A stretch of DNA of 64,000 nucleotides. Source: a virus. The translations under genes were made by a program, and so were the position numbers. The notes below the pieces were generated by a model. The model searched no databases, was not told the DNA's origin, and was given only the letters and a program-made list of their open reading frames with translations. The stretch spans positions 96,001 to 160,000 of the IMG/VR virus record IMGVR_UViG_3300036766_000416. One strand, written 5' to 3'. Below are positions 3,671 through 60,977 of the stretch, piece after piece (the first letter of the stretch is position 1; each line of letters begins with the position of its first letter).

Positions 3671-5382
3671 GTTTTCGTCTCTTCGGGTTTTCATTAGGTA
3701 AAACCCCTGAAATAACACAATTAGAAGATCCCGCCAAGCAGAATCTAGTTATCCCACAATCCCAGTTGGATGACGGAGCCGTCACGATAACCCAGGGCGG
3801 GTACACAGGGACGTATGTGGACCTGGAGGGTTCGGTTCGCAATGAACTGGAACTCATCACAAGATATCGTGAAATGTCCCTGCACCCAGAATGCTCTGAA
3901 GCGATTGAGGAAATCATCACCGAAGCGGTCACTGCAGATGAAGATGGTGAGATTGTTGGTCTGAACCTCGATAAACTCAATGTCCCCGCGAGCATCAAAA
4001 AGAAAATCATCGACTCGTTTGACAAGATCAAGTCCATGCTGTCGTTCCAGGACCTTGGTGAGGACCTGTTTAAGCGTTGGTATGTCGATGGTCGTCTGTA
4101 TTTCCAGGTCGTCGTGGATACCACAAAACCCAAAGAGGGTATCCAAGAACTCCGCTATATCGATCCTCGTAAAATTCGCAAGGTCCGCGAAATCCTCAAA
4201 GACCGCGACCCTCGCAGTGGTATCGAAATCATCCGTGCGACCAGCGAATACTACGTCTACAACGAGAACGGTCTCACCGCTCAAGCCTATACCGCAAGTG
4301 TGAATCAAGGTACCCGTATCGCCCCAGACTCCATCGTGTTCGTGCCATCTGGATTGCTGGATGCCAAATCCGTGATGGTGATTGGATACCTACACAAGGC
4401 CATCAAGTCTCTCAATCAACTTCGCATGATCGAAGATGCCGTTGTGATCTATCGGTTATCACGCGCCCCCGAACGCCGCATATTCTACATCGACGTGGGC
4501 AACCTACCCAAAGCCAAAGCTGAACAATACCTCAAGCAGATCATGACCCAGTATCGCAACAAGCTGGTCTATGATGCATCGACCGGCGAACTCCGCGATG
4601 AACGCAAGCACCTTTCTATGTTGGAAGATTTCTGGCTCCCTCGCCGTGAAGGTTCCAAGGGTACTGAAATCACCACGTTACCTGGTGGAGAGAACCTAGG
4701 TAAAATGGAGGACGTCGAATACTTCCAAAAGAAACTCTACAAGTCTTTGAACGTACCTATCGGACGACTCGATTCCCAATCAGGTGGTACAGGTGGCCTC
4801 CAGGGTCTTGGTCGTGTCGCTGAACTGACTAGAGATGAGGTCAAGTTCCATAAGTTCGTCCTACGACTTCGCAACAAATTCTCTCGGGTCTTCGATGAAG
4901 CATTGGCAAGAGACCTTGTCCTCACTGGGGTCTGTTCGCAAGAGGAATGGAGTGACTTTCGTGAGTATGTGACCTATGAGTATAAAAATGATAATAATTT
5001 CACCGAACTTCGTGATTCAGAATTGCTGAGGGAACGTATTGCGACCCTGATGCAGGTTCAACCGTTTATTGGCACCTACTATTCGAATACCTGGGTCAAG
5101 CGACATGTGCTCATGTTTGACGACAAAGAAATTGAAGAGATGCTGGATGAGATAGACGAAGAGACTAAACGTGGTGAGTTGCCCTTGGCACCATTGCCTG
5201 GACAAGAGGGACAACCTGGGCAAGGCGGTCAGCCTGGACAACCGGGTGGCGGAGGTGCAGCAGGTGCCCCGGCACCAGAACCGGTCGATAACACCGTAGA
5301 TACCTCAGAGGAACCTACGGAATCACTGACGCCGGGGTTGGATCGGGCAGTGGATAAGGCATTCAAGAAACGAGGCAAGTAG
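3667..5382 (+). CDS. gp20: Portal vertex protein
   Basis: RWYVDGR, YIDPRKIRK, YLHKAIK.LNQLRMIEDAVVIYRLSRAPERRIFYIDVGNLPK.KAEQY, EDFWLPRREG.KGTEITTLPGG. Confidence 0.98.
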   Translation: MSFRLFGFSLGKTPEITQLEDPAKQNLVIPQSQLDDGAVTITQGGYTGTYVDLEGSVRNELELITRYREMSLHPECSEAIEEIITEAVTADEDGEIVGLNLDKLNVPASIKKKIIDSFDKIKSMLSFQDLGEDLFKRWYVDGRLYFQVVVDTTKPKEGIQELRYIDPRKIRKVREILKDRDPRSGIEIIRATSEYYVYNENGLTAQAYTASVNQGTRIAPDSIVFVPSGLLDAKSVMVIGYLHKAIKSLNQLRMIEDAVVIYRLSRAPERRIFYIDVGNLPKAKAEQYLKQIMTQYRNKLVYDASTGELRDERKHLSMLEDFWLPRREGSKGTEITTLPGGENLGKMEDVEYFQKKLYKSLNVPIGRLDSQSGGTGGLQGLGRVAELTRDEVKFHKFVLRLRNKFSRVFDEALARDLVLTGVCSQEEWSDFREYVTYEYKNDNNFTELRDSELLRERIATLMQVQPFIGTYYSNTWVKRHVLMFDDKEIEEMLDEIDEETKRGELPLAPLPGQEGQPGQGGQPGQPGGGGAAGAPAPEPVDNTVDTSEEPTESLTPGLDRAVDKAFKKRGK

Positions 5383-7006: not shown

Positions 7007-7015
7007 GGGAGAACT

Positions 7016-7693
7016 ATGAAGTTACTTAGAGAGCATTTCGAAAACGTCAAGGTCCTCACGGAATCGGATAAGCTGTCAGGCAAGAAATCCTTCTACATAG
7101 AAGGTATCTTCATCCAGACTGAGCGGCCGAACAAGAACCGCAGACAGTATTGCTTTGAATCAATGGACCGAGAAATCCAGCGATACACCAACACCTACAT
7201 CAAGGAAAACCGGGCGTTTGGTGAACTGGGTCACCCTGATACCCCAACGATCAACCTAGAGCGCGTCTCGCACCTCATCAAGGAACTCAGGGCCGATGGC
7301 AAGGACTTCTATGGCAAGGCCAAGATCCTCACCACCCCCTATGGCAAGATTGTGGAATCCTTGCTGGAAGAGGGCGCCAAAATCGCGGTGAGTACCCGTG
7401 GCCTAGGGTCTCTCGTAGCCGGACCTAATGGTGTCAACATGGTCCAGGACGACTTTCAGTTGGCCACAGCGGCCGACATTGTGGCCGACCCCTCAGCCCC
7501 CGATGCCTTTGTCCAGGGCATTTGCGAACAACGCGAATGGATTTTCGAGGCCGCCAAGGGTACCTGGGTGGAAAAGCAGGTCGAACAACTCTATGAGACC
7601 CTCCCAAAATACAACACCAAACAGCTACATGAAACCGCCGTCAAGCTCTTTATGGATTTCATGGACGGGATCACTGGTAAGGGCCGAAAATAG
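7016..7693 (+). CDS. gp21: Prohead core protease
   Basis: IEGIFIQ....NKNRR.Y, AFGELGHP, INLERVSH, VSTRGLGS, ADIVADPSAPDAFV.GI.E. Confidence 0.97.
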   Translation: MKLLREHFENVKVLTESDKLSGKKSFYIEGIFIQTERPNKNRRQYCFESMDREIQRYTNTYIKENRAFGELGHPDTPTINLERVSHLIKELRADGKDFYGKAKILTTPYGKIVESLLEEGAKIAVSTRGLGSLVAGPNGVNMVQDDFQLATAADIVADPSAPDAFVQGICEQREWIFEAAKGTWVEKQVEQLYETLPKYNTKQLHETAVKLFMDFMDGITGKGRK

Positions 7694-12493: not shown

Positions 12494-13971
12494 TGGAACA
12501 GATCACCCTTACCAAATTCAACGAGGCCTTTGTCAAGTTTGACTGTGAACGAGGTGTGGGGCAGGAAATTTGGGACTTCTTTTCATTCTATGTACCTGGG
12601 TTTCAATACATGCCCGCGTTCAAGAAGAAATTTTGGGACGGCAAGATGCACCTGGCAAACCTCCAGACACACACAATCCCAGGTGGTCTGGTAGGATACC
12701 TCAAGACATTCGCCGAGGAACGACAGTATCGCCTGGTCATTGACGAATCCATCTTACTGACCACAAGCTTTTCGTTAGCGGAGGCACAAGCATTCGCGGA
12801 TTCTTTGAGACTACCTCATGTGCCCAGAGATTATCAGATCGAAGCCTTTGCGAAGAGTATTCGAAATCGTCGGTTACTCGTGGTCAGTCCAACGGCATCG
12901 GGCAAATCGTTGATCATCTATCTAATCGTTCGGCACCTCCACCTCACACACCTCAAAGGTTTGGTGATTGTCCCGACGACCTCACTGGTCGAACAACTGT
13001 TTGGTGACTTCAAGGCCTATGGGTGGGACTCTGACAGGTATGTGCATCGCATTTATTCGGGAAAAGAGAAACACACGAATCATTTTTTGACGATTTCAAC
13101 ATGGCAATCACTACACCGACAAGGACCCGAGTACCTCAAGCAATTTAATTTTGTGGTCGGTGACGAAGCGCACCAGTTCAAAGCGAAATCTTTGACAGAC
13201 ATCATGGGGAACCTCACGAATGCTGACGTCCGAATCGGCACCACAGGTACACTGGATGGCGCCAAGGTCCATAAGCTGGTCCTCGAAGGTCACTTTGGTC
13301 CAGTATTTCAAACAGTAACCACCAAAGAACTGATGACCTCTGGACACCTCGCAAACCTCACGATCAAGTGTCTGGTACTCAAGTACCCCAAAGAGGTCTG
13401 CGCTCAACTACGAAAGTCCACGTACCCCGAAGAGTATGAGGCCGTTGTCCAGCACCTAGCGCGAGCAAAGTTTGTTCGAAACCTTGCGTTATCATTGAAA
13501 GGAAACACCCTGATTCTCTTTCAACTCGTCAAGAAACATGGGCGTCCCCTCTATGAGGACATTGCAAGTCACATAGTAGACGGTCGCTCGGCGTTTTTTG
13601 TTCATGGTGGTGTGGAAACCGAGGACCGTGAATCAATTCGTAAGATCACTGAGGAGGGTGAGAACGTCATTGTGGTCGCTTCCTATGGGACCTTTAGCAC
13701 GGGTATCAACATCAAGAATCTCCATAACGTGATCTTTGCTGCGCCGTCCAAGTCCAAGATTCGGAACCTTCAATCTATTGGTCGAGGTCTTCGCACAACA
13801 GACAGCAAGACTCAAGCGACGTTGTTTGACATTGTGGACGACCTTCGCATCGGGAAACACCAGAACTTCTTGCTCAAACATTTTATAATACGCACACAGA
13901 TTTACCATGATGAGAAATTCTCATTTCAACAATACCTGATCGACCTGAAGGGACCTGATGCCACACGATAA
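12493..13971 (+). CDS. uvsW: SF2 DNA helicase UvsW
   Basis: WDGK..L, PRDYQ, SPTASGKS, GDEAH, GTTGTL, ASYGTFSTGINIKNLHNVIFAAPSKSKIRNLQSIGRGLR. Confidence 0.96.
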   Translation: MEQITLTKFNEAFVKFDCERGVGQEIWDFFSFYVPGFQYMPAFKKKFWDGKMHLANLQTHTIPGGLVGYLKTFAEERQYRLVIDESILLTTSFSLAEAQAFADSLRLPHVPRDYQIEAFAKSIRNRRLLVVSPTASGKSLIIYLIVRHLHLTHLKGLVIVPTTSLVEQLFGDFKAYGWDSDRYVHRIYSGKEKHTNHFLTISTWQSLHRQGPEYLKQFNFVVGDEAHQFKAKSLTDIMGNLTNADVRIGTTGTLDGAKVHKLVLEGHFGPVFQTVTTKELMTSGHLANLTIKCLVLKYPKEVCAQLRKSTYPEEYEAVVQHLARAKFVRNLALSLKGNTLILFQLVKKHGRPLYEDIASHIVDGRSAFFVHGGVETEDRESIRKITEEGENVIVVASYGTFSTGINIKNLHNVIFAAPSKSKIRNLQSIGRGLRTTDSKTQATLFDIVDDLRIGKHQNFLLKHFIIRTQIYHDEKFSFQQYLIDLKGPDATR

Positions 13972-35963: not shown

Positions 35964-36908
35964 TTGGAACCCAATCTTAGACATGCCCTGTGGACCGAAC
36001 GCTATCGACCCCTCACCGTTGAGGACTGTATTCTGCCGGACCGACTCAAGGTTCCGTTCAGGGAATACGTCAAGACCAAGACTATCCCGAACCTGTTGCT
36101 AGCGGGCACCGCAGGTGTTGGCAAGACTACTATCGCCAAGGCGCTCTGCAACGAAATCGGGTGCGATTATCTAGTCATCAACGGTAGTGATGAATCGGGC
36201 ATCGACACGTTTAGAACCAAAATAAAAAACTATGCGTCCTCACTGTCGATGACCGGAGGTCGCAAAGTCATCATCATCGATGAAAGTGATTACCTGAATC
36301 CCAACTCTACTCAACCAGCGTTGCGTGGTGCCATGGAAGAATTTGCAGGTAACTGTTCGTTTATCTTCACAGCCAACCACAAAAACCGACTCATCGAACC
36401 ACTGCACTCTCGGTGTGCCGTTGTGGAGTTTACCCTCAAGGGCACCGAGAAACAAAAGATGGCTGCGGCATTCTTCACCAGGGTCCAAGCGATTCTCAAA
36501 ACTGAAACCATTGAATATGACCAGAAAGTTCTTGCGGAACTGGTCACTAAGTATTTTCCAGATTTTCGACGGGTTTTGAATGAATTACAACGATACTCAA
36601 AGTTCGGCAAGATCGATGTTGGTATCCTGAGCCATATCGGTGACGTAGACATCACAGAGGTTGTTGGGTACCTCAAGGTCAAGGATTTTGGTTCACTGAG
36701 AAAATGGGTGGGGAGTCATACCATAGAACCGACGGTGTTATTCAGGAAAATTTATGATGGTATGTATGAAATCCTGAAGCCAGAATCTATACCTCAGGTG
36801 GTTTTGCTCCTAGCAGATTATGGGTATAAATCAGCCTTCGTGGTCGACCAGGAGATAAATACAATGGCATGTTTAGTCGAATTGATACTACAGTGTGAGT
36901 TCGTATAG
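35964..36908 (+). CDS. gp44: Clamp loader large subunit
   Basis: LWTERYRP, GTAGVGKTT, INGSDESGID..R, IIDESD, Q.ALR..ME, PLHSRC, FPDFRR.LNELQRY. Confidence 0.96.
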   Translation: MEPNLRHALWTERYRPLTVEDCILPDRLKVPFREYVKTKTIPNLLLAGTAGVGKTTIAKALCNEIGCDYLVINGSDESGIDTFRTKIKNYASSLSMTGGRKVIIIDESDYLNPNSTQPALRGAMEEFAGNCSFIFTANHKNRLIEPLHSRCAVVEFTLKGTEKQKMAAAFFTRVQAILKTETIEYDQKVLAELVTKYFPDFRRVLNELQRYSKFGKIDVGILSHIGDVDITEVVGYLKVKDFGSLRKWVGSHTIEPTVLFRKIYDGMYEILKPESIPQVVLLLADYGYKSAFVVDQEINTMACLVELILQCEFV

Positions 36909-37432
36909 TGAAACATCATATTATCCCCCTTCATGAATGGAAGAAAAGGTTCAATCCAAAGGCTACAAGGGCTGATAAAGAATTGAACGCTCCCGACAAT
37001 GTTGTTGTTCTCACAATAGAGCAACATGCTCAGGTTCACCAATTCCTGTATGAGCAATATGGTAGGTGGGAAGATAGGCTGGCTTGGAAGGGGCTGACTG
37101 GTGGAATTGGTACAGAAAGTATTCTCGCTGAGAAGCAGCGTTTGAACGGTAGCAGATCGGGACTACTCATAAAAGGAATTCCGAAATCACAAGATCATAA
37201 AAATGCCCTAAAAAGTGCTTCCAGAAAAAGATGGGATTCGGAACAAGGTAAAAAAGAAATAGATAAAATGGCTCGCAATTATAAAGTGATTTGTCCATCT
37301 GGTTTGGTTATGGTAATACGAAATCTCACACAATTCTGCAGAGAGCACAATCTTCCAATTCAAAACATGACTCATGTAGCCAAAGGTAAGAGAAAACATT
37401 GTAAGCACTATTGGTGTGAGGAAATCGGATGA
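36908..37432 (+). CDS. HNH homing endonuclease
   Basis: KHHIIPLHEW...NVVVLTIEQHAQVH; inserted between gp44 and gp62, overlapping both. Confidence 0.85.
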   Translation: MKHHIIPLHEWKKRFNPKATRADKELNAPDNVVVLTIEQHAQVHQFLYEQYGRWEDRLAWKGLTGGIGTESILAEKQRLNGSRSGLLIKGIPKSQDHKNALKSASRKRWDSEQGKKEIDKMARNYKVICPSGLVMVIRNLTQFCREHNLPIQNMTHVAKGKRKHCKHYWCEEIG

Positions 37433-37830
37433 CACCCTTTGACTTTGTTCGTCAAATCAATACCGGTAAACAAGACCTGATGACCGATGACTTGTCGGAG
37501 AAGGAATATGTCCCGTTCGTCGTGAATCGTACCTTGTCCTATGAAATGGACAGTCTGATGCAGGCCAACGAAATGAACACGCGGGCCCATTGTGACAAGA
37601 AACTCCAATATCACTACCTCCTGGGCACCGTCCGGTCCCGCAAGCGACCGTTTCACAAGTGGTTCAAAGCGGCCAGCGACGACGTGATCGATGATATCAA
37701 GCTATTCTATGGGTATTCGGACAAGAGAGCCTATGAGGCACTTGAGTTGCTTACACCCGAACAACTCCAAGAAATCAGCGAAAAAACTGATCCCGGCGGC
37801 CGCGCTGGACACAGGAAGCAGAAAGTATAA
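37429..37830 (+). CDS. gp62: Clamp loader small subunit
   Basis: PFDFV..IN.GK, KEYVPFVVNR.LSY, ANEMN, QYHYLL..VR.RKR...W, YGYS..RA.EAL.LLT. Confidence 0.9.
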   Translation: MTPFDFVRQINTGKQDLMTDDLSEKEYVPFVVNRTLSYEMDSLMQANEMNTRAHCDKKLQYHYLLGTVRSRKRPFHKWFKAASDDVIDDIKLFYGYSDKRAYEALELLTPEQLQEISEKTDPGGRAGHRKQKV

Positions 37831-37833
37831 ATA
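37826..37833 (+). promoter_or_regulatory. T4 late promoter TATAAATA upstream of regA
   Basis: Exact consensus. Confidence 0.6.
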
Positions 37834-37877
37834 GCCATGCGATATGTCACCACTATGAGAGAAAGCGAGTTGAACGC

Positions 37878-38297
37878 ATGGAAGACATTTTCAATGGCGT
37901 CGGGGTCGAGATTGCCCTCACGACACCAGAGGATTTTCTCAAAATCCGTGAAACCCTATCCAGGATCGGCGTCTCGTCACGCAAAGAGAAGATTCTCTAC
38001 CAGTCATGCCACATCCTCCACAAACGCGGTCGCTACGTTGTGCTCCATTTCAAAGAACTATTCCTTCTTGACGGCAAACCCACAGACATTACCGAAAACG
38101 ACCTTGCACGGCGCAATGCGATTGCAGGACTCCTGGCTGAATGGAAACTCTGCAGTATCCTCCACCCAGGGACCTTGGGCGCGTCAGCACCGTTGGCACA
38201 GATCAAGATCATCGCACATAAAGAGAAAGCAGATTGGACGCTCGTGACCAAGTATACCATGGGTAGGAAAACGCTACCAACCACACAAAGCATATAA
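37878..38297 (+). CDS. regA: Translational repressor RegA
   Basis: DFLKIRETLSRIGVSSRKEKILYQSCHILHKRGRY..LHFKELF.LDG, KIIAHKEK..W.LV.KY.MG. Confidence 0.97.
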   Translation: MEDIFNGVGVEIALTTPEDFLKIRETLSRIGVSSRKEKILYQSCHILHKRGRYVVLHFKELFLLDGKPTDITENDLARRNAIAGLLAEWKLCSILHPGTLGASAPLAQIKIIAHKEKADWTLVTKYTMGRKTLPTTQSI

Positions 38298-38334
38298 GTT
38301 CATTTAATACAAGTTCGCTCTATATCACATAAAC

Positions 38335-38770
38335 AGTTTCGGGTGACGGATAGACCTCACTAAGTTTTCTAAAGGTCCTATAGAGGATCAAGAGTGGCAT
38401 TAACAAGCCACATGGTGCTGATGGACTGGTCGAACGGTCCCAGTGCTTGCGACCTTCAGTTCGCTCGTCAAAGGGAGTCAAGCGGTTCCTCCCCTTTCTT
38501 CTTCGGAAGTTGAGTCGTTCGACATGCCCACGGCATTCCTCGCTGCCTCAGCATAGTTTTGCCCGAAAACCTTAACTTCAAACCCACCGATGAAGCGTAG
38601 CACGAGCCGTAGGCGAGTGGATGAAGAACTTCCGAAGATGACCTTATGAAACCTCAAGTTCGGAAATGCTTTTGGGCGCTTGGAATAGTCTTGTTCATTT
38701 CGGATTAGACGTCGAGGTCGCAAGGTCACGTTAGGAAACGTGTAGGGATAACTCAATTTTTATTATAAAG
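38335..38770. ncRNA. Candidate large structured non-coding RNA (family unknown; strand not determined)
   Basis: About 480 nt without a convincing gene. Contains nested perfect inverted repeats (38446-55/38715-24, 38500-11/38627-38) and several local hairpins. Confidence 0.5.
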
Positions 38771-38776
38771 GTTATT

Positions 38777-39073
38777 ATGTCAATGCACTACTCAATAAAA
38801 CCTGGTTGCCATTACTCCAAATACTCATCAGAATCCGCTTGGTACGCATTCTACCATGATGACACCTACTCAAGTGGCTCAGGTCCATCCAAGACTTCTC
38901 AAAAATTGGCGCTGTGGCACAACAACCTCTGCACGGATTGGCCCTACCTCGGTCTCAAAGGTATGAGGCCTGAGGATATTCAGAACCACTATAAGTGTTC
39001 TGATATAGAACTCGCTTCTGCCCTATGTTTCATTGAACGATTTTATCGAGATGTTGAAAAGAGATTTGTATGA
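38777..39073 (+). CDS. Hypothetical protein (weak DUF433-like C-terminus)
   Basis: GMRPEDIQNHY...ELASALCF pattern; ATGA-coupled to the next gene. Confidence 0.5.
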   Translation: MSMHYSIKPGCHYSKYSSESAWYAFYHDDTYSSGSGPSKTSQKLALWHNNLCTDWPYLGLKGMRPEDIQNHYKCSDIELASALCFIERFYRDVEKRFV

Positions 39074-39720
39074 CCATCAAGGATTTTAAGTTTCGGTTTG
39101 GTTCAGAACTGACACGGGCTCGACGTGTTCTCAATGCTCCCTTGATCTACCTTCACAATCGTTGGGTCTGCCCCAGTGACCGAGTGATCATCAAGCACCC
39201 CGACTGTCCTCGTGGTCGGTACCGCGATGCAGATACCGTGTTGTTGTATGCCATGTTTCAAGTGTTGGTGGACTTTGTGGAAACTGAGTGCGGGAATCAT
39301 TATTTCAATCAACCACATTCACATTTCGAGACCTTTAGTCAAAAAGTTTATCGAGTAATTCAAGACCTTCCAGTGTTTCACTACCTTCTTCCACCACTTC
39401 GCAACGCTCGCCGTGGTCTCCATTATCTGAGATGGTGTATGAAGCTGACCGATCACCCGGGGCAAGCTCAGTTCGGTTGTGATGTATTCGAACTCTATCG
39501 TTTCTGGAAACACGAGAGACCGGCGCGAGTCGAACCATTCGATGGTGGTGAACAGTTCACAGAAGAACGAAGGAATATGGAACCAGGTCACTACCTCGAT
39601 TTTTCGCCAGAATATTCGGCATTTTTGAAACAAGCTGGAGAAATTGAGGATAAATATATTGAGGAAGATACAAGAATGTTGACGCAACTGGTTAAGATTA
39701 GGGGAGGTCTTTGGACATGA
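39070..39720 (+). CDS. Hypothetical protein
   Basis: Intact 216-aa ORF with ATGA overlaps at both ends. Confidence 0.75.
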   Translation: MTIKDFKFRFGSELTRARRVLNAPLIYLHNRWVCPSDRVIIKHPDCPRGRYRDADTVLLYAMFQVLVDFVETECGNHYFNQPHSHFETFSQKVYRVIQDLPVFHYLLPPLRNARRGLHYLRWCMKLTDHPGQAQFGCDVFELYRFWKHERPARVEPFDGGEQFTEERRNMEPGHYLDFSPEYSAFLKQAGEIEDKYIEEDTRMLTQLVKIRGGLWT

Positions 39721-40199
39721 GCCAACTAAGCCCGCATTTTTCATTGAGGGAACTGACACGATCTGATACCGCACTGAGACTGGGTATAGACAATCTTCCA
39801 ACAGAAGAGCACTTGAAGAATCTTGTGCTGGTCTGTCACCATATACTAGAGCCAGTTCGCGCAAAGTTCGGAGTGGTCCGAATCAATTCTGGGTACCGGT
39901 CACTCGCACTGAACATGTCCATAAACCCTATGACGACCACACTCACTAGGTTATCTAGGCACTGCACGGGGCAAGCAGCAGACTTTGAGGTGGATGGGGT
40001 TTCGAACGTAGTAGTCGCCGAATGGTGTCGAGACAATCTCCCTGAGTATCAACAAATTATTTTGGAATTTTATACTCCAGGTCAACCAAACTCTGGATGG
40101 GTGCACGGAGCATATGTGGTCGGACAGCAGAAAAAAGAGTGTCTGACAGCGGTGAAGGTGAATGGAAAAACAACATATCTATTAGGATTACAACCATGA
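39717..40199 (+). CDS. Peptidase M15 family (endolysin-like Zn peptidase)
   Basis: LSPHFSL.EL..S, INSGYRS, SRH..GQAADF, WVH. Confidence 0.85.
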   Translation: MSQLSPHFSLRELTRSDTALRLGIDNLPTEEHLKNLVLVCHHILEPVRAKFGVVRINSGYRSLALNMSINPMTTTLTRLSRHCTGQAADFEVDGVSNVVVAEWCRDNLPEYQQIILEFYTPGQPNSGWVHGAYVVGQQKKECLTAVKVNGKTTYLLGLQP

Positions 40200-40936: not shown

Positions 40937-42460
40937 ATGTCCAAGCCTTTCTACACCAATGTCTCGGTGAGCGGAAACCACGTCTACTATCGTGGTATCG
41001 AAAACGGTCGTCGGGTGCAGCGGAAACTCTCCTATGCCCCGACGCTCTTTGTGCCTTCAAAGACCCCCAACACCACAGTCACCTGGAAAGACCTGCAAGG
41101 TAACCCTGTTGAACCAATGAAGTTCACGTCGATCTACGACGCCAAAGATTTCATCAAACGGTACAAGGACGTTAAAGGGTTCACGATCTACGGACAGCAA
41201 AACTTTGCGACGGCTTTCATTGCAGAACAGCACCCCGAAGAAATTATGGAATGGGACCTTGCCCATGTGGTGACCGCGTACATCGATATCGAAGTCGATA
41301 CTGAGTACCGAATGCCAGACGTCGATACCTGCCTGAATCCCATCACTGCTGTCACTATCAAATTTTCCAACGACCCCCAGTATCATGTGTTTGGCTGCAA
41401 TCAGTATACCCCTCACCGTCCCGATATCACCTGGTATCAGTGTGTCGATGAGTGTAACCTTGTAACCCGCTTTATGTCACTGTGGCGCGACAGAGCCCCT
41501 GATATCATTACTGGGTGGAGTGTCAAGACCTTCGATATTCCCTACCTCGTCGGACGTATCATCATGTTGTTAGGTGAGGATCAAGCTCAGTGGTTGTCAC
41601 CATGGGGGAAGGTGAACCGTCGTGAAGAAAAATCAAAGTTCGGGAAACCAATTACTACGTACCAACTTTTGGGTATTTCCACTCTTGACTATTTTCAACT
41701 CTACAACAAGTATGCCCCCAAGTCGAACCAAGAATCCTACAAGTTAGACTACATCGCTCATGTGGAATTGGGTGAACGCAAAGTCAACTATGAAGAACAT
41801 GAAACACTTCACAACCTTTATCGAGACAATTTTCAAAAATTTATTGAGTATAACATTCATGACGTCGAGTTAGTGGAAATGCTCAATGCCAAGGGACGCC
41901 TTGTTGATATGGCTGTCTTGCTTGCCTACGACAACAAGACGAACTATGAAGATGCGTTTTTTCAGGTACGTATGTGGGATGCGATCACCTACAATCACCT
42001 GAACCGAAAGTATATTGTGATACCTCCCAAAAAGGGAGAGGAAAAAGACGAAGCGTATGAGGGTGCGTATGTCAAGGACCCACAGACAGGTCTCTTTGAG
42101 TGGTTGATGAGTCTGGACTTGGATAGCTTGTACCCCCATTTGATTATGCAATATAACTTGTCACCCGAAACATTGATCGACCCCAAGAACTATACACCTG
42201 CTATGAAAGCGGTGTTGGAACAGGGGGTATCCGTAAACGCTTTGCTCCAGCAAAAGATCACCCTTGATGGTCTTGAAGGGTGTACGCTGACCCCCAATGG
42301 ACAATTTTTTGATACCACTCGGGTTGGATTTCTTTCTGAGATTATGGATACCATGTATGCCGCTAGGGTACACTACAAAAATAAGCAACTCGAATTAGAA
42401 CTAGAACTTGAGGAGATTAAGGGGGAAATGATGCGGCGAGGAACTAACTTTCCTAAATAG
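40937..42460 (+). CDS. gp43: DNA polymerase B, N-terminal subunit (43A: exonuclease, motif A, start of fingers)
   Basis: DIEV (ExoI), GW..KTFDIPY (ExoII), YNIHDV (ExoIII), YEGAYVK, SLDLDSLYP..I.QYNLSPET; ends in the fingers tip. Confidence 0.95.
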   Translation: MSKPFYTNVSVSGNHVYYRGIENGRRVQRKLSYAPTLFVPSKTPNTTVTWKDLQGNPVEPMKFTSIYDAKDFIKRYKDVKGFTIYGQQNFATAFIAEQHPEEIMEWDLAHVVTAYIDIEVDTEYRMPDVDTCLNPITAVTIKFSNDPQYHVFGCNQYTPHRPDITWYQCVDECNLVTRFMSLWRDRAPDIITGWSVKTFDIPYLVGRIIMLLGEDQAQWLSPWGKVNRREEKSKFGKPITTYQLLGISTLDYFQLYNKYAPKSNQESYKLDYIAHVELGERKVNYEEHETLHNLYRDNFQKFIEYNIHDVELVEMLNAKGRLVDMAVLLAYDNKTNYEDAFFQVRMWDAITYNHLNRKYIVIPPKKGEEKDEAYEGAYVKDPQTGLFEWLMSLDLDSLYPHLIMQYNLSPETLIDPKNYTPAMKAVLEQGVSVNALLQQKITLDGLEGCTLTPNGQFFDTTRVGFLSEIMDTMYAARVHYKNKQLELELELEEIKGEMMRRGTNFPK

Positions 42461-60388: not shown

Positions 60389-60977
60389 TATTTACCAAAT
60401 AGTAAATAATATCAATAATAAGAGGTATGTTGGGTTCACGTCACTAAGAAATCCGAGAACTAGATTTATCCAACATTCATCTAAATCCAAAAGAGGTTCC
60501 AAGTCTCCCATACATTGTGCGATCAGGAAATATGGGAAAAATAATTTTCATTTTGAAATTCTAGAGCAAGGTGAAGATGGGGAGTATGGTAAAAATATTG
60601 TTGAACCTATGTATATTGAATGGATGGTGCCTGAATATAATTTGACTAGGGGTGGTGAGGGTGCTTTTGGTTATAAGCACACAGAACAATCAAAGAGCAA
60701 GTTATCCCAAAAACTAAAAGGAAGGACGTTTAGTGACGACCATATAAGAAATTTAGTAATAGCTAGGTCTTTTAGAAAAGTCACTGAGAGTTGGAAAATC
60801 AACAACGGTGAGGGACACGCAAAAATATTTATTATAACTTCACCTACCGGGCAATCCTACACCATAAAAAACCTAAGAAAATTTTGTAGACAGAATAATC
60901 TCCATCAAGGTTATATGGTTTCTATCGCAAAGGGTAAAAACAAATCCTATAAGGGGTGGAGGTGTAAATATCCATGA
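60381..60977 (+). CDS. GIY-YIG homing endonuclease
   Basis: SIYQIVNNINNKRYVGFT...RFIQH...AIRKYGK, YNLTRGGEG. Confidence 0.85.
   Translation: MYSIYQIVNNINNKRYVGFTSLRNPRTRFIQHSSKSKRGSKSPIHCAIRKYGKNNFHFEILEQGEDGEYGKNIVEPMYIEWMVPEYNLTRGGEGAFGYKHTEQSKSKLSQKLKGRTFSDDHIRNLVIARSFRKVTESWKINNGEGHAKIFIITSPTGQSYTIKNLRKFCRQNNLHQGYMVSIAKGKNKSYKGWRCKYP

Follow-up and report, generated by a model that had tools for sequence, protein, structure and literature searches.

Large RNAs with complex folds are rare, and new ones have tended to reveal new biology. Comparative genomics has yielded the orphan structured non-coding RNAs (ncRNAs) GOLLD, ROOL, HEARO, OLE and raiA, of which GOLLD and ROOL also occur in phages; GOLLD, ROOL and OLE are thought to work as a ribonucleoprotein (RNP) scaffold, decoy or catalyst. 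The translational operators of phage T4 are 20-40 nucleotides (nt) long, overlap the ribosome-binding site (RBS) and are bound by their cognate protein. We know of no requirement for an elaborate fold in the T4 origin RNAs and, to our knowledge, no large structured RNA has been described in the well-studied T4-like replication gene cluster. Here we describe such a candidate from a 64,000-nt stretch of viral DNA (positions 96,001 to 160,000 of IMG/VR record IMGVR_UViG_3300036766_000416; hereafter the window), which belongs to a complete T4-like phage genome of 178.6 kilobases (kb) that has direct terminal repeats. The element occupied a gap without coding sequence (38298-38776, approximately 480 nt; window coordinates throughout, unless a locus is named) between regA, which encodes a translational repressor, and a conserved gene encoding a protein of 96/98 amino acids (aa; the 96-aa gene below).

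A first-pass annotation had proposed a novel structured RNA in this gap. That headline was upheld: the gap was non-coding and conserved, its copies shared a fold with compensatory changes on the plus strand, and it had no match in Rfam. We conclude that the element is very probably a conserved, folded plus-strand RNA of approximately 390-430 nt that belongs to no known family. Most of the specific anatomy that had been proposed for it did not hold.

RegA, conserved DNA blocks and the 96-aa protein encoded downstream served as queries for homologues. The element was recovered in seven distinct copies, from the window and from the loci designated L002, L096, L001, L110, L095 and L098, all of environmental T4-like phages; L112-115 represented a variant of L001 with four bases different, and L082 carried the L095 copy plus an insertion. 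All seven were located on the coding strand, with regA upstream and the same 96-aa gene downstream. By their 5' halves they formed two groups, group A (window, L002 and L096) and group B (L001, L110, L095 and L098), with 70-98% identity within groups and 44-55% between them. The two halves had different nearest relatives: L002 and L096 were 94% identical in the 5' half and 52% in the 3' half, L095 and L098 were 98% and 70% identical, respectively, and the window 3' half was closest to those of L001, L095 and L098 (69-71%). The halves have therefore been swapped by recombination as modules, with a boundary near 38560.

A model of 16 helices was built by hand from consensus folds. Its elements, in the window copy, are listed below.

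38298..38341, +: variable 5' lead-in, outside the conserved core; length and sequence vary, and it is absent in L001 and L110
38342..38361, +: H1, optional hairpin GGUGA/UCACY with GGAU in the loop; nearly invariant in five of the seven copies, absent in L001 and L110; no covariation
38394-98/38407-11, +: H2, hairpin of 5 base pairs (bp); stems GUGGC, GUGGU, GUAGG and GUGGG with matching 3' arms
38414-20/38441-47 (outer) and 38423-27/38436-40 (inner), +: H3, two-part hairpin with an 8-nt loop
38429..38435 with 38517..38523, +: pseudoknot between the H3-loop strand GUCGAAC and GUUCGAC, a strand just 3' of the junction
38463..38515, +: three-way junction; Hx (38463-66/38512-15) encloses H5 (38473-77/38489-93) and H6 (38498-501/38506-09, UUCG loop)
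38524-28/38532-36, +: H7, closing pair changing from A-U to C-G
38542-45/38549-52, +: H8, sequence mostly conserved
38561-68/38670-77, +: H9, long-range helix predicted by consensus folds, closing the 3' domain (38561..38677)
38576..38594, +: H10, variable hairpin CUUCA/UGAAG
38602..38618, +: H11, hairpin N-C-[GA]-GCC / GGC-[GA]-G-N' with tandem G.A pairs and a triloop
38624..38671, +: H12, long variable hairpin (arms 38624-41/38654-71; inverted repeat, 78%), replaced by hairpins of other sequence in relatives
38680-86/38697-703, +: H13, tentative, 7 bp in five homologues, with one double-sided change
38727-31/38738-42, +: TH, terminal hairpin of 5 bp with the hexaloop U(C/A)GGAA, 31-40 nt before the next start codon

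When RNAalifold was applied separately to the 5' halves of groups A and B, the same order of hairpins (H2-H3-H4-H5-H6) was recovered from each, and group B also gave Hx. Single-sequence pair probabilities for H2, H3 and H4 ranged from 0.6 to 1.0 and in most cases exceeded 0.85; two values, both from L095, were lower. H2, which was predicted independently in both groups, showed double-sided changes at two of its five pairs and a pair probability of 0.87-1.0 in six of the seven sequences. H3 comprised 12-13 bp and a loop of 6-8 nt in the separate group folds, the stem sequences differing and the loop remaining the same; its inner part had a pair probability of 0.72-1.0 in all seven sequences and its outer part 0.86-0.96 in six, with 0.37 in L095. 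H4 was strong and GNRA-capped in the relatives. The pseudoknot formed by the H3 loop had 7 bp in every one of the seven copies, all of them canonical, with a double-sided change from G-C to A-U at two positions and one wobble change. Hx was also recovered by RNAalifold on the seven sequences together, with a C-G to U-A change in L110, and double-sided changes were observed at two positions of H5 and four of H6, where the register between the groups was ambiguous.

In the 3' domain, the inner half of H9 was replaced by other complementary sequences in L096 and L110; confidence in this predicted helix is moderate, because single-sequence thermodynamics does not predict it. The six relatives carried an additional hairpin with a UCCU loop (H10b), which was lacking from the window copy; all four of its pairs covaried and the loop was conserved, and in the L112-115 variant UCUU was restored to UCCU. 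The H11 core was invariant in six of the seven copies, with a closing pair of three types (A-U, G-C and U-A); L096 had another hairpin, of 6 bp, at this position. H13 had a low pair probability, and a rival 5-bp hairpin was possible there. TH showed double-sided changes at three of its five pairs, was duplicated in L110 and had only 3 bp in L001 and L095. H1 was dispensable, being absent from L001 and L110, whereas TH and its spacing of 31-40 nt to the start codon were retained. On this model the 5' domain appears well supported and the 3' domain only moderately so. The idea that H11 or TH might be elements repeated across the genome was not borne out by a genome scan; the TH motif was unique in the 178.6-kb genome.

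Several strands had more than one conserved partner. The G-rich strand 38532-36 could pair with 38524-28 or with 38562-66, the latter being preferred by RNAalifold for group A, and the first base of both C-rich strands changed with its partner, as A with U or C with G. The 3' strand of the pseudoknot had a rival pairing of 4 bp with 38566-69, which covaried at the same position. These conserved alternative pairings are a hint that the RNA may act as a switch.

The model was evaluated by shuffling the 3' letters of each pair among the sequences (2000 shuffles; 88 pair positions, or 93 with the second L110 hairpin, and approximately 530 cells). On the plus strand 96.8% of the cells held canonical pairs, a value that none of the 2000 shuffles reached (86.4 ± 0.9%). 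Double-sided changes were present at 32 positions, compared to 16.7 ± 2.3 in the shuffles (maximum 26). When the 3' partners were slid by 1-3 positions, 32-41% of the cells paired. The same pairs read on the minus strand were 87.8% canonical; the G.U pairs thus mark the plus strand. These shuffle statistics are optimistic, since the helices were picked by eye from the same sequences.

The anatomy in the first-pass annotation had centred on long-range inverted repeats, all of which were present in the window: CTTGCGACCT/AGGTCGCAAG (38446-55/38715-24) matched at 10 of 10 positions, and the 12-mer (38500-11/38627-38) lay within a 15-nt repeat of 93% identity. By our estimate a perfect 10-mer inverted repeat is expected 0.14 times, and a 12-mer 0.01 times, in approximately 550 nt of random sequence, so that neither is attributed to chance in the window copy. 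As repeats enclosing the region they were peculiar to the window copy; for the 10-mer, the 3' arm falls in a 9-nt insertion that no relative shares. The 12-mer match reflected a UUCGGAA/UUCCGAA core common to two local hairpins (38498-38509 and 38624-38671); in L098 the 3' hairpin was present and the 5' one was non-complementary to it, the local hairpins thus being kept without the long-range match. A proposed conformational switch, in which 38714-27 would pair with 38640-55, rested on the same window-only insertion. The short local hairpins fared better. All five were located where they had been reported and four entered the shared model: GTGGC/GCCAC is H2, GGACT/GGTCC the inner part of H3 and ATGCC/GGCAT is H7, all conserved with covariation, and CTTCA/TGAAG marks a variable hairpin position. 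The fifth, GACCT/AGGTC (38353/38373), had no counterpart in the alignment of the relatives. A late-promoter-like CATAAACA was indeed present at 38328-35 and was not conserved in the relatives.

No coding function was found for the gap. No plus-strand open reading frame (ORF) within it exceeded 42 aa. The minus-strand 92-aa ORF (38478..38756, -) was rejected as a spurious gene and is not the conserved element: its frame was interrupted by stops (from 2 to 5 or more) in each of L095, L001 and L098, the minus-strand ORFs at the element differed in each relative, and searches of Pfam and PHROG gave no match to it. The gap had been described as the longest gene-free stretch of the genome, which is not strictly so. 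On a naive ORF cover (no ORF of at least 45 aa), ORF-free stretches were also present at 60389-60973 (585 nt) and 7007-7427 (421 nt); Rfam and tRNA searches of these two stretches gave no match.

Likewise, no known RNA family was recognised, in agreement with the first-pass reading, which had matched no tRNA, tmRNA, RNase P or group I core motifs. The Rfam 15 covariance models, which cover group I and II introns, RNase P, tmRNA, 6S, riboswitches, GOLLD, ROOL, HEARO, OLE and raiA, gave nothing at E≤10 in 37000-40000 of the window, nothing at E≤5 for the element in six homologous loci, and nothing at the gathering score in the whole 64-kb window, where ARAGORN also found no tRNA or tmRNA genes. 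A group I intron interrupting a gene was rejected. RegA matched its Pfam profile end to end, the 96-aa gene was complete and aligned over its full length with its relatives, and Intron_gpI gave no match to the intron core even at E≤10; in our reading, the helix order of the element also does not appear to fit P3-P9. A sponge of the CsrB/RsmZ type was considered as well. Each copy held 4-11 GGA motifs, compared to 6-8 expected from shuffles, which is no enrichment, and GGA occurred in only three loops (H1, H8 of group B, and TH); such a role is unlikely.

The element was narrowly distributed. The 127 loci compared contained no further copies, nor did scans of viral contigs (three, by pattern), metagenome contigs (one) and prokaryote-genome contigs (one) yield any. 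The three viral-contig scans, which used DNA patterns, returned the same three relatives only, plus chance matches in coding DNA. Scanning the metagenome with the 96-aa protein gave two loci only, an nhmmer profile of the element added no members from 111 loci, and blastn against 50,697 phage records gave no match. The genome-contig scan gave nine chance matches, none of which was confirmed by nhmmer, and hence no sign of a host-derived RNA. One chance match to the search pattern, in the unrelated high-GC viral contig L088 (approximately 4150-4400), consisted of tandem units with GAGCCTAAGGCGAG-like words.

The genes around the element, and a candidate transcript start, were as follows.

35964-36908, +: gp44, clamp loader
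36908-37432, +: HNH endonuclease gene between gp44 and gp62, related to the HNH gene of L082
37429-37830, +: gp62
37826..37833, +: TATAAATA, candidate transcript start ahead of regA and into the element; 3 matches in 64 kb, 0.59 expected
37878-38297, +: regA, upstream flank (Pfam PF01818, E=6e-41, profile 2-122 of 122)
38777-39073, +: conserved 96/98-aa gene, downstream flank, directly 3' of the element in every copy
past the 96/98-aa gene, +: a 216-aa gene, an M15 peptidase, two small genes and gp43

The Pfam match confirmed that the element follows regA, which in the window was 92-93% identical to the L001 and L002 copies. The 96/98-aa gene product had no match in Pfam or PHROG. The DNA polymerase of the window phage was approximately 43% identical to polymerases of cultured cyanophages; its gp43 ORF (40937-42460) ended after 507 aa, compared to 873-874 aa in relatives, and the polymerase gene is thus split in the window. 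The RBS region of the 96-aa gene (38745-38785) was AU-rich, with UUUUUAUUAUAAAGGUUAUUAUG, and paired weakly with an upstream U-run in three of the seven copies; in our reading, this region resembles a RegA-type target. The link between the element and RegA itself is one of adjacency only.

A scan for consensus sigma-70-like promoters and intrinsic terminators, which does not extend to phage middle or late promoters, detected neither a promoter upstream of the element on the plus strand nor a terminator downstream of it. H2 directly follows the stop codon of regA in L001, which leaves no space for a promoter there. Further upstream, TATAAATA is what we take to be the T4 late-promoter consensus, and by analogy with T4 it is a putative promoter. 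It is carried by the 47-nt spacer between gp62 and regA (37831-37877), which was almost identical in all element-bearing relatives, among them L002, L096, L098, L112 and L114, though coding third positions were only 54-65% identical; this spacer, absent from a more distant clade in which regA abuts gp62, may be a conserved regA leader or autoregulatory site. On the simplest reading the element is probably transcribed through regA and onward into the 96-aa gene.

We tentatively favour a role in cis, and the element may well be a long structured leader or intercistronic RNA that is co-transcribed with regA. With neither a promoter nor a terminator to itself, the element would lie on transcripts that run through regA, starting for instance at the conserved TATAAATA (37826). 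In the model the RNA consists of two independently recombining domains, a 5' domain of H2, H3, H4, the three-way junction and the pseudoknot, and a 3' domain closed by H9, with the tandem-G.A hairpin H11, variable hairpins and TH approximately 35 nt before the next start codon. Placed ahead of the operon that extends from the 96-aa gene towards DNA polymerase, such a leader or intercistronic RNA could set messenger RNA stability, processing or translation, either through protein binding at the invariant loops of H11 and TH or through switching between the alternative pairings of the GCC and GGC strands around 38524-38566.

This cis reading is favoured because of the fixed link and spacing to the downstream start codon, and because the 5' end of the element is dispensable. 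It is favoured, too, by an insertion in L082, where an HNH gene lay between regA and the element and replaced the last regA codons; L095, of the same phage type, was uninterrupted.

13164-13643, minus strand of the L082 locus: free-standing HNH homing-endonuclease gene, upstream of the element

The insertion spared the junction, leaving the element joined to the downstream gene. A further reason is that phages of a distant clade have a structured spacer before this gene, a shorter one that includes an H11-like tandem-G.A hairpin. In this clade (L101, L106, L107 and L108) the 96-aa protein was approximately 50% identical and the order regA, spacer, 96-aa gene was retained; the element was absent despite both genes, the spacer being shorter (178-320 nt) and of different sequence, and the H11-like hairpin (C-GA-GC..GC-GA-G) lay 60-80 nt before the 96-aa gene. 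Two points weigh against a leader: approximately 400 nt with a pseudoknot is large for such a function alone, and sequestration of the Shine-Dalgarno sequence was not consistent across the homologues.

The distant spacers (L101 2755-3000; L106 1042-1219; L107 2073-2300; L108 2681-3000) showed features of their own: regA is followed at once by a hairpin, a TATACATATC-like block is common to them, and between one and three hairpins, whose outer stems covary, are based on GCGAAGC or C-GA-GC..GC-GA-G. They may represent a second, related RNA motif.

A stable structured ncRNA that acts in trans, as an RNP scaffold, decoy or catalyst, after being cut from the regA transcript or made from an unrecognised promoter, is the main alternative, a possible if unlikely explanation. 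Its size and complexity speak for it (a pseudoknot, a multi-way junction, a tandem-G.A motif and invariant loops combined with approximately 16 helices), as does the exchange of whole domains between phages; in some copies we also read a weak promoter-like GCT(A/C)TAT block before H1. Against it, no evident terminator followed the element, no promoter was conserved and L001 offers no space for one between the regA stop and H2; moreover, the element was always beside the 96-aa gene and its distribution was very narrow. In its most specific form, a new class of autonomously folding, two-domain, pseudoknotted phage RNA of approximately 400 nt that is released from the regA transcript and acts in trans, we consider this explanation rather unlikely. 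Such an RNA might scaffold an RNP, divert a host factor as a decoy, or act as a ribozyme in the replication or late-gene programme, and phages infecting the same cell would exchange its domains much as they do protein modules.

It is improbable that no fold is under selection and that the gap is a fast-evolving spacer with a few regulatory blocks (a promoter, an RBS and protein sites) and chance hairpins. Our model has several weak points, some of which lend weight to this explanation. Only seven sequences, from about five independent lineages, were available. Copies of the element shared 57-77% identity, close to the value for third positions of codons in the two flanking genes, regA and the 96-aa gene (46-83%, mostly 50-65%), so that sequence constraint is weak and restricted to a few blocks. 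When the conserved core was aligned with MAFFT, covariation was not significant (89.8% paired, compared to 88.3% after shuffling), and the helices of the model were hand-picked; RNAalifold on mixed-group MAFFT alignments failed for H2 and H3, because their arms were misaligned. H9, Hx, H7 and H13 were absent from single-sequence folding. The description of the gap as highly structured was only mildly true in thermodynamic terms: the gap had minimum free energy z-scores of -2.3 (plus strand) and -2.2 (minus strand), and in a second set of shuffles the z-scores were modest and similar on both strands (window -1.65; seven homologues -0.4 to -3.6). Against a mere spacer, the independent group folds gave the same series of hairpins, H2, H3 and H4 had pair probabilities of 0.6-1.0 in nearly every sequence, and the pseudoknot was present in all seven copies with two compensatory positions. 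The stems of H10b and TH changed while their loops stayed, and neither the shuffles nor the slid controls reproduced the pairing.

An element that acts as DNA in replication, whether as an origin, a primer-RNA or R-loop site, or single-stranded hairpins for replication and recombination proteins, is very improbable. The position among clamp-loader, regA and polymerase genes would suit it, the domains recombine, and the spacers of the distant relatives were full of GCGAAGC, which is reported to form a highly stable mini-hairpin in DNA and to occur at the origins of some phages; the window element itself lacked GCGAAGC, there was no AT-rich unwinding region or change in GC skew, the GC content (0.47) was like that of the flanks, and many G.U pairs marked one strand. 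Finally, a coding or formerly coding origin, as the minus-strand 92-aa gene, a decayed gene, or a remnant of a homing endonuclease or intron, could point to the existence of that ORF and to HNH genes nearby (36908-37432, and another in L082), but is largely refuted by a frame broken in all relatives, no family match, no detectable intron core, indels between conserved blocks that are not multiples of three, and complete regA and 96-aa genes on either side.

As a regulator, the element would add an extra RNA layer of control to the genes from regA to DNA polymerase in a group of uncultured phages; as a free RNA, it would found a new orphan family. On either view it shows RNA domains exchanged by recombination as modules, with its narrow distribution setting a practical limit. 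Among described systems, the T4 translational operators (the gene 32 leader pseudoknot, the gene 43 operator hairpin and the RegA sites) resemble it as structured RNAs that precede a start codon within the same cluster of genes; unlike them, it is ten times larger and ends approximately 35 nt before the start codon. With T-box and large riboswitch leaders it shares a place upstream of an operon and mutually exclusive GCC/GGC pairings with three-way covariation, but it has no recognisable terminator or anti-terminator, has no Rfam riboswitch or T-box match, is larger than known aptamers and points to no ligand. ColE1 RNA II and the R-loop RNAs of T4 oriF and oriG are, like the element if it is transcribed as we propose, structured untranslated transcripts within or beside replication genes; the element differs in showing neither an unwinding element nor a change in skew.

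A further comparison is with GOLLD, ROOL, HEARO, OLE and raiA. Unlike these orphan ncRNAs, the element is co-directional between two genes and lies away from tRNA genes, with neither a promoter nor a terminator evident; it has no covariance-model match to any of them and is represented by seven sequences from one phage clade. Like them, it is several hundred nt long, with many helices, a pseudoknot and variable peripheral hairpins arranged around conserved junctions.

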